Below, one piece after another: positions 32,487 through 32,770 of a stretch of DNA of 64,000 bases (its first letter is position 1; each line of letters starts with the position of its first letter). The DNA is from a virus. The stretch lies in the IMG/VR virus record IMGVR_UViG_3300044673_000097, positions 21,380-85,379 of that record; one strand, 5' to 3'. Both the position numbers and the translations under genes were made by a program. Below the pieces are notes generated by a model. It saw only the letters and a program-made list of their open reading frames with translations. It did not search any database and was not told the DNA's origin.

Positions 32487-32770
32487 TGGATCGAAACGCA
32501 ATCGTTGGCGAGGACGATGCCTCGCCTTTGCGCCTTGCAGCAGGCGCTCTCGAAAACATCCGACTGGGCATCCTCTCCCACACGCGCAAGGATGCGTTCG
32601 CATTCCGAACTGTCAACGTGCAGCGCTGTCGATTCAGCAGATTGTTCCACTTGACAATCCCCACACCCCTCAAACTCCTGCCGCTCCGGCACCCACACCC
32701 GGCCAGTGCCGCCGCATGGGCAAGGCGGCTTGTACCGGCCCAGCGCTTCGAGCTGTGCGCGGGAGGTCAT
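32462..32770 (-). CDS. Small Cys-rich hypothetical protein
   Basis: ATGA-coupled start; CPCGGTG...CGDC. Confidence 0.5.
   Translation of the reverse strand: MTSRAQLEALGRYKPPCPCGGTGRVWVPERQEFEGCGDCQVEQSAESTALHVDSSECERILARVGEDAQSDVFESACCKAQRRGIVLANDCVSIHDCEKVGA
32590..32631 (-). promoter_or_regulatory. Candidate promoter plus operator for the array/cas12f unit
   Basis: TTGACA-16-CATCCT on the minus strand; 32610-32631 matches immunity-region 49270-49291 at 18/22. Confidence 0.55.

Follow-up and report, generated by a model that had tools for sequence, protein, structure and literature searches.

A 22-nt segment at positions 32610-32631 (minus strand) of the virus record IMGVR_UViG_3300044673_000097 raises the question of whether a temperate soil phage has placed an RNA-guided DNA-binding module under the operators of its own lysis-lysogeny switch. 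We analysed the last 64 kb of this 85,379-nt record (the window, to which all coordinates refer; G+C 64.8%). The segment matches 18 of 22 positions of the PR-like promoter/operator at 49270-49291, which lies between a CI-like repressor gene and the gene in the Cro position, and it has the strand and direction of a nearby guide RNA module and cas12f-like gene. Judged by its letters, the site is a third copy of an element common to both divergent early promoters of the phage, beyond chance on tests that take the architecture of these promoters into account. On the further claim, that the guide module of a nuclease-dead Cas12f (dCas12f) is driven from this site by an internal early promoter under repressor control, we are evenly divided.

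The two early promoters provide the reference for this comparison. The PR-like promoter (49248-49291, minus strand) leads to the Cro-position gene and reads, from upstream, TGACAGCGC, the block CTGTAACTTGACAG with TTGACA inside it, a 17-nt spacer and AATCAT. The PL-like promoter (51742-51790, plus strand) leads to a recombination operon with a YqaJ-like exonuclease gene and contains TGACAGCGC twice, the block CTGCAAGTTGACAG with TTGACA inside it, a 17-nt spacer and CATGAT. Both cores (49276 to 49248 and 51762-51790 (+), respectively) score 10/12 in a consensus promoter scan. When the sequence of the PR gap is aligned without indels to that of the PL gap, the best 14-nt block (49270-49283 versus 51755-51768) is identical at 12 of 14 positions, and the earlier statement that the PL-like promoter has the same elements, with TGACAGCGC at 51742 and 51763, is borne out. 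The consensus of this block, CTGYAASTTGACAG, was derived without the site. With at most one mismatch it occurs in exactly three places, in the window and in the 85-kb record alike: at PR, at PL and at 32610-32623 on the minus strand, where 13 of 14 positions agree in an operator-like block of the form CTGC-N6-ACAG that includes the -35. Allowing two mismatches still gives these three places only. Shuffled sequences yield on average 0.05 matches per window and 0.02 per record, with any match at all in 10 of 500 shuffled records.

The similarity between the site and PR extends beyond the block, as the 8 nt upstream of it are 7/8 identical and in register. Minus-strand anatomy is accordingly alike in the two: an upstream (T/C)GACAGCG, a short spacer, and TTGACAG, the first six letters of which are a perfect -35. 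Of the four mismatches over the 22 nt, three are located in the 6 nt that separate the two elements. The letters reported by the first-pass annotation for this match, TTGACA included, are correct, with the -35 placed at 32616 to 32611. Within the window, 32610-32631 is the sole match to the PR 22-mer at up to six mismatches, and it lies on the same strand. At up to four mismatches, none of 300 dinucleotide-shuffled windows and one of 500 shuffles of the whole record contained a match; when the two positions that vary between PR and PL are made degenerate and at most two mismatches are allowed, none of 500 shuffled records did. Because the 22-mer equals the union of the two elements common to PR and PL, its choice as a query was not arbitrary.

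We read the site as the core of a putative internal promoter of the sigma-70 type, directed along the minus strand. Its -35 hexamer, TTGACA (32611-32616, read from 32616 to 32611; 6/6), is followed after a 16-nt spacer by the -10-like hexamer CATCCT (32594 to 32589), which contains A2 and T6 and agrees with TATAAT in 3/6 positions; from this geometry we infer a transcription start near 32582. TTGACA occurs 12 times on the two strands of the 85-kb record, and for 5 of the 12 copies a hexamer with A2 and T6 follows at a distance of 16-18 nt: those of PR (AATCAT), PL (CATGAT) and the site (CATCCT), and two intergenic ones (TATTAT and TATCAT). The -10 hexamers of the first three all lack T1 and take the form nAT..T, and the two strong intergenic promoters lack the CTGY block. 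One of the latter (41975-42002, plus strand; TTGACA, 16 nt, TATCAT) is near consensus, lies in the gap 41930-42112 and faces against the minus-strand early operon, where it could be an antisense or moron promoter. A reading of the site as a plus-strand promoter was dropped, the TTGACA at 32651 (+) being without a -10.

At PR, PL and the site the -35 sits inside the block in identical register, so a single protein on the block would exclude polymerase alike at all three; put differently, any protein that holds it at PR and PL would hide the -35 of the site as well. The symmetry of the putative operator can be drawn in two ways. The outer tetrads of CTGY-N6-ACAG are dyad-symmetric, fully so at PR (CTGT-N6-ACAG) and at 7/8 outer positions at PL and the site (CTGC-N6-ACAG), and the pattern occurs at these three loci only in the window, a count that is not above chance for a pattern defined post hoc. 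The other candidate is a 16-bp near-palindrome around CAGCGCTG, which is 89% complementary at PR and, by eye, only about half symmetric at the site; its position is less uniform, as it lies upstream of the -35 at PR and the site, and between the -35 and the -10 at PL. Separately, the predicted -10 and start of the site lie within a perfect 7-nt inverted repeat (GCATCCT/AGGATGC, 32568-32595, arms 14 nt apart), a repeat of about the kind expected by chance in this stretch.

The site faces a conserved, structured RNA. Two hairpins (32507-32547, minus strand; 32547 to 32530 and 32526 to 32507) open a tracr-like guide scaffold, and the first of them starts 63 nt downstream of the site and approximately 35 nt past the inferred start. 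The scaffold alignment comprises six copies from three loci: two in the window and two each in the related loci L005 and L008. Because conservation among these copies begins exactly at the first hairpin (32547), with no conservation upstream of it, the site can be said to precede the conserved RNA by 63 nt. In the six copies the hairpins are paired in 93.3% of cells, and 6 of 13 pairs are altered on both sides, the structure having been read from the same sequences. None of 500 shuffles scored as high for pairing or for covariation, and controls slid along the alignment pair in 29-44%. The fold of 32410-32585 is no more stable than that of shuffles (z -1.28), so the case for an RNA rests on covariation, and a search of Rfam across 29500-33000 returned nothing relevant.

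Beyond the scaffold lies a mini-array of three direct repeats of about 33 nt (32236-32409, minus strand) at 70-71-nt spacing, the last of which overlaps the ribosome-binding site of cas12f; pairing of repeat and anti-repeat was judged by eye only. The nearest clear repeat begins some 200 nt past the site, and the distance of approximately 125 nt to the array given earlier had been counted from a degenerate first repeat. A second scaffold copy is found near 30090, after the stop of a 194-aa partner gene.

The protein encoded next, the 501-aa Cas12f-like product of 30726-32231 (minus strand; PF07282, E 5.6e-12), is RuvC-dead as judged by its catalytic residues: the RuvC-I Asp is replaced by His and the RuvC-II Glu by Pro. 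Position RuvC-I is His or Asn in all eight family members and RuvC-II is Pro in five of them, the window protein included, and an intact D, E, D triad is absent; the RuvC-III Asp and the zinc-ribbon cysteines are retained in the family. A profile of the eight homologues matches the Cas12f structures 8j12, 7wju and 8dzj (E 5e-27 to 3e-26). With an inactivated RuvC, a conserved fold and an adjacent guide RNA, the module has the features of the nuclease-dead TldR/dCas12f class. Since its RuvC site is dead, the target of the promoter would be an RNA-guided DNA binder with its guides rather than an interference nuclease. The partner gene (30145-30729, minus strand) overlaps the stop of cas12f, and its product has weak matches to coiled-coil or leucine-zipper-type Pfam families, all of them below threshold.

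The mechanism that we favour is as follows. The likeliest protein to bind the block would be the adjacent CI-like helix-turn-helix (HTH) repressor, with the Cro-position protein as its competitor in the lytic phase. As a protein on the block would cover the -35, the promoter at the site would be shut in the lysogen and released together with PR and PL on infection or induction. The resulting transcript would start some 35 nt before the tracr-like hairpins and run through the three-repeat array into the nuclease-dead cas12f and the coupled 194-aa partner gene. That the promoter is active, where its transcript starts, which protein binds it and with which sign it is regulated are all points that we infer from the DNA letters. 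The earlier proposal that array and cas12f are wired into the CI/Cro circuit gains a third copy that has the same -35 register and faces the module, and loses its interference nuclease, Cas12f being RuvC-dead. In its revised form, a dead Cas12f with fixed guides would be under direct CI/Cro control through a third operator-promoter, silent in the lysogen and immediate-early on infection or induction, and this stronger version we hold only tentatively, at somewhat below even chances.

Several observations weigh against a regulated promoter at the site. When the query may be chosen freely from the 96 22-mers in the 117-nt CI/Cro gap (49243-49359), an 18/22 match turns up in 18 of 60 dinucleotide-shuffled windows; the significance of the match at 32610-32631 depends on the null chosen. 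The PR-PL block is marginal by itself, 12/14 being attained in 19 of 300 shuffled pairs. Exact copies of TGACAGCGC, at 49283 (-), 51742 (+), 51763 (+) and 47631 (+), are not significantly enriched (4 against 1.54 expected; at least four in 10 of 100 shuffles), and its one-mismatch forms are common, with 32 sites in the record and CGACAGCGC alone present five times. The 11-mer CAGCGCTGTCA, at up to one mismatch, has 5 matches against 2.12 expected, and a pattern ending in R, with 3 matches against 0.18 expected, was moulded on the site itself and is circular. The promoter scan, which requires at least 4/6 at the -10, makes no call at the 32616 site, the -10 of which is weak (3/6). Being part of the long PR operon, the module has no strict need of a promoter of its own, and a second guide module (30140 to 29780) is without such a site. 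The operator rests on three sites in one genome, and its half-sites are ambiguous between the two symmetries described above, both of which the site carries. The reading as a whole, too, rests on one genome.

Much of this would equally be expected if the resemblance were due to chance, or the site were a decayed relic, and the module depended for its transcription entirely on read-through from the PR-like promoter, which lies 16.6 kb upstream. In addition to the free choice of query, the near-expected counts of the 9-mer and 11-mer and the weak -10 that the scan missed, the gapless packing of the upstream genes, like that of a single operon, favours this explanation. It is nonetheless unlikely in our view, as the match consists of exactly the two elements that PR and PL have in common, in the register of PR (found in 10 of 500 shuffles for the 14-mer and in 1 of 500 for the 22-mer), and a perfect -35, a hexamer with just 12 copies in the record, has been retained in the correct orientation 63 nt before a conserved structured RNA. 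The fourth exact copy of TGACAGCGC (47631-47639, plus strand) is a separate matter: it lies within the CII-like gene with no -35 nearby, and may be there by chance or be an internal site.

An operator might also be present without any role as a promoter. DNA looping by the repressors of 186 and lambda offers one precedent, and the site could anchor a loop to PR or PL. Another is the stoperator, described for mycobacteriophages (PMC9283540), and in this manner the site might act as a roadblock in the lysogen, ahead of the dCas12f module and the late genes. Preservation of the block (13/14) is indeed better than that of the -10 (3/6), and a site in the PR operon between DnaB and terminase would be well placed to guard against leaky late expression. 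A full TTGACA with an A2/T6 hexamer at a legal spacing would, however, be superfluous for a mere binding site, stoperator phages have many such sites as opposed to a single distal one in 85 kb, and 16.6 kb is long for a loop; we thus rate a distal operator as improbable, slightly below a chance resemblance.

Last, and least probable of the three, the guide module could have a real promoter outside immunity control, the block reflecting promoter architecture (a -35 plus upstream contacts) or the site of another regulator. Half of the common block is after all a consensus -35, and all three promoters have the same type of weak -10, a feature frequently seen where promoters depend on an activator or make extended upstream contacts. 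Lambda CII binds repeats that flank a -35, and a CII-like gene is present here (47367-47882, minus strand). This explanation is disfavoured by the absence of the block from the other two strong promoters with TTGACA in the record, by the 8 nt further upstream, including the CAGCGCTG palindrome, that the site has in common with PR, and by the fact that PR and PL of a temperate phage are the expected targets of its repressor. An origin of the similarity in a spacer-target relationship was dropped, since the site is not within a spacer and, among the matches listed, the module met PR and PL only through the site; comparison of the spacers with the phage's own 85 kb likewise gave, among the matches listed, nothing beyond short chance words.

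The open frame around the site deserves consideration, as the site had been described as hidden inside a small gene. A 102-codon frame (32462-32770, minus strand), which has an ATGA overlap with the upstream gene, does enclose it, and its first 45 residues contain CxC...CxxC motifs. Its third-position G+C is 0.56-0.66, near the genome mean, against about 0.8 in neighbouring genes, its gene-call score is 10.8 against 21-26 for shorter neighbours, and no homologue was found among 1.84 billion representatives save one spurious 1142-aa repeat protein (E 9e-7). The last 30 codons overlie the conserved hairpins. As the frame is an orphan of average third-position G+C with its 3' part over structured RNA, it appears weakly coding, which leaves no clear case for a site hidden inside a gene; the frame may be translated on long PR transcripts.

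The wider genome, as seen from a simple gene call and family searches, has a lambda-like temperate layout. The CI-like repressor (49332-49910, plus strand) matches Pfam HTH_3 and PHROG repressor families, and the family search found no S24 peptidase domain in it. Opposite this gene runs a long, tightly packed minus-strand operon, which begins with the Cro-position gene (48975-49241), assigned by its position and its divergence from the CI-like gene. Searches of Pfam and PHROG gave no family match for the Cro-position protein, which carries a glycine-rich insert (GVGGDGGGGGRG) within an HTH-looking stretch. Judging by distances from the PR-like promoter, the Cro-position mRNA is probably leaderless. 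The operon continues with an Ant-like anti-repressor gene, the CII-like gene (assigned by family search), a DnaB-type helicase gene (38301-39713) as one of the replication genes of the PR operon, many small genes, the Cas12f module, the large terminase gene (26390-27763), which lies downstream of that module, and the structural genes. A second operon, on the plus strand, starts at 51810, to the right of the CI operon, and includes the YqaJ-like exonuclease gene. In this PL-type operon, 57334-59628 (+) encodes a 764-aa C5 cytosine DNA methylase with Hint, Hom_end and LAGLIDADG domain matches in its middle, and the gene looks intein-interrupted.

Few relatives are available for comparison. As a single query the Cas12f protein has no match in viral contigs; the eight-homologue profile recovers three viral and six metagenome loci, and none in genome contigs. 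The homologues nearest to the protein include P0002 (67%), P0004 (61%) and an 85.5-kb sibling of cluster P0001. The DNA of 30700-33300 has no match in phages, where the Cas12f protein finds only distant (<27%) transposase-like matches. CI relatives are absent from viral contigs, genome contigs and GenBank phages alike. When viral contigs were scanned for CAGCGCTGYNNNTTGACAG, 21 loci came up, all unrelated by their flanks and rejected; the similar-looking case in L025 is inside a gene next to capsid genes. The sequencing runs listed as containing this stretch are DNA runs, none of them RNA. Contigs from four rhizosphere DNA runs cover 32200-52199 in fragments, with no variant listed at the site, PR or PL.

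The only syntenic relatives are L004 and L005 (64% identity), the nearest to the Cas12f protein among the loci retrieved, on which there is no immunity region. L005 has a small HTH gene and a 170-nt non-coding gap ahead of its scaffold, and it has the hairpin at 32526 to 32507 in common with the window; no consensus promoter was found in L005 at 3000-5000. At 4423-4660 of L005 (identical in L004), two copies of the hairpin scaffold stand 164 nt apart with compensatory changes in both stems, together with four short repeats (CAAnGGGTGCAAG) at 35-89-nt spacing, complementary in their core to the first hairpin's loop. Directly before the first scaffold copy is the end of an excisionase-like HTH gene.

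More distant homologues differ in their surroundings. That of L001 (42%) has a different context, and just before its start codon (9930-9985) there is TTGACA-18-CATCAT with a 12-bp perfect inverted repeat over the -10/start region; this repeat has no other copy in that 84.5-kb record. L007 (3430-3720) and L003 (9860-9980), with homologues at 36-37%, have a different conserved non-coding RNA with AACACCTGAC. Because AACACCTGAC is complementary in L007 to 17-nt repeats (CGTCAGGTGT...) spaced 33-34 nt apart, the guide units of L007 would be unusually short.

If the site works as we propose, the dead Cas12f and its guides would be made with the early lytic genes and not in lysogeny, which would narrow the purpose of the guides to the host or to competitors at lytic onset; the module could, for example, silence promoters of the host or of rival phages as part of the lytic programme. 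It would be the first CRISPR-derived transcription factor inside a lysis-lysogeny circuit, with a timing opposite to the lysogenic-conversion role of prophage TldR, and it would imply that such modules can swap a private HTH regulator, as in L005 and the published dCas12f loci, for the operator of a master switch. The locus would also open a new kind of RNA-guided regulator of phages to simple tests with three short DNA fragments, one repressor and one reporter.

The known systems with which this arrangement can be compared fall on both sides of the proposed circuit. In lambda, 434 and P22, the operators OR and OL are imperfect palindromes of 14-17 bp that overlap PR and PL and are bound by CI and Cro. 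The window resembles lambdoid immunity in its divergent CI-like and Cro-position genes and in two early promoters with a common element, apparently an imperfect palindrome, over the -35, and the 4-N6-4 layout of the putative half-sites resembles that of 434 operators. It differs in having a third copy 16.6 kb away, inside the rightward-type operon and before an accessory RNA-guided module; moreover, tandem triple operators are not evident, the CI-like protein is without the S24 cleavage domain, and the operator here is putative. With mycobacteriophage stoperators the site has in common that an immunity-repressor site, here a putative one, lies outside the immunity region and within a transcription unit; stoperators, however, are numerous, asymmetric and act on elongation, whereas the phage site is single and has an apparently full promoter geometry.

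Prophage TldR (10.1101/2023.11.30.569447; PMC13418256) is similar in that a temperate phage carries a dead RNA-guided DNA binder of the TnpB/Cas12 family with a fixed guide set. The phage protein differs from TldR in grouping with the Cas12f structures 8j12, 7wju and 8dzj. Expression of TldR-FliC 'appears constitutive' in lysogens (PMC13418256), a case of lysogenic conversion. Under the proposed wiring the timing would be the reverse, with expression off in the lysogen and on with the early lytic promoters.

A further parallel is provided by the dCas12f loci described in PMC13472631, which likewise combine a nuclease-dead Cas12f with guide RNAs. According to that paper, hth genes commonly flank such loci, their expression being set by HTH proteins that bind to inverted repeats near the promoter, and one cluster of dCas12f proteins is associated with CRISPR arrays and has a proposed repressor role. 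Given the HTH gene of L005 and these HTH-regulated loci (PMC13472631), modules of this sort would normally have a dedicated and regulated promoter. The literature searched by title and start of abstract described no CRISPR or dCas12f module of a phage behind an immunity operator, which is weak evidence of absence. The loci of PMC13472631 are chromosomal (Bacteroidota), have their own hth gene, in most cases with an rpoE partner, and rely on single guides in place of a tracrRNA; the module studied here resides in a temperate phage, has no local hth gene, carries tracr-like scaffolds with mini-arrays and apparently borrows the operator of the master switch. What would set this module apart from known ones is its regulator, the switch of the phage itself.

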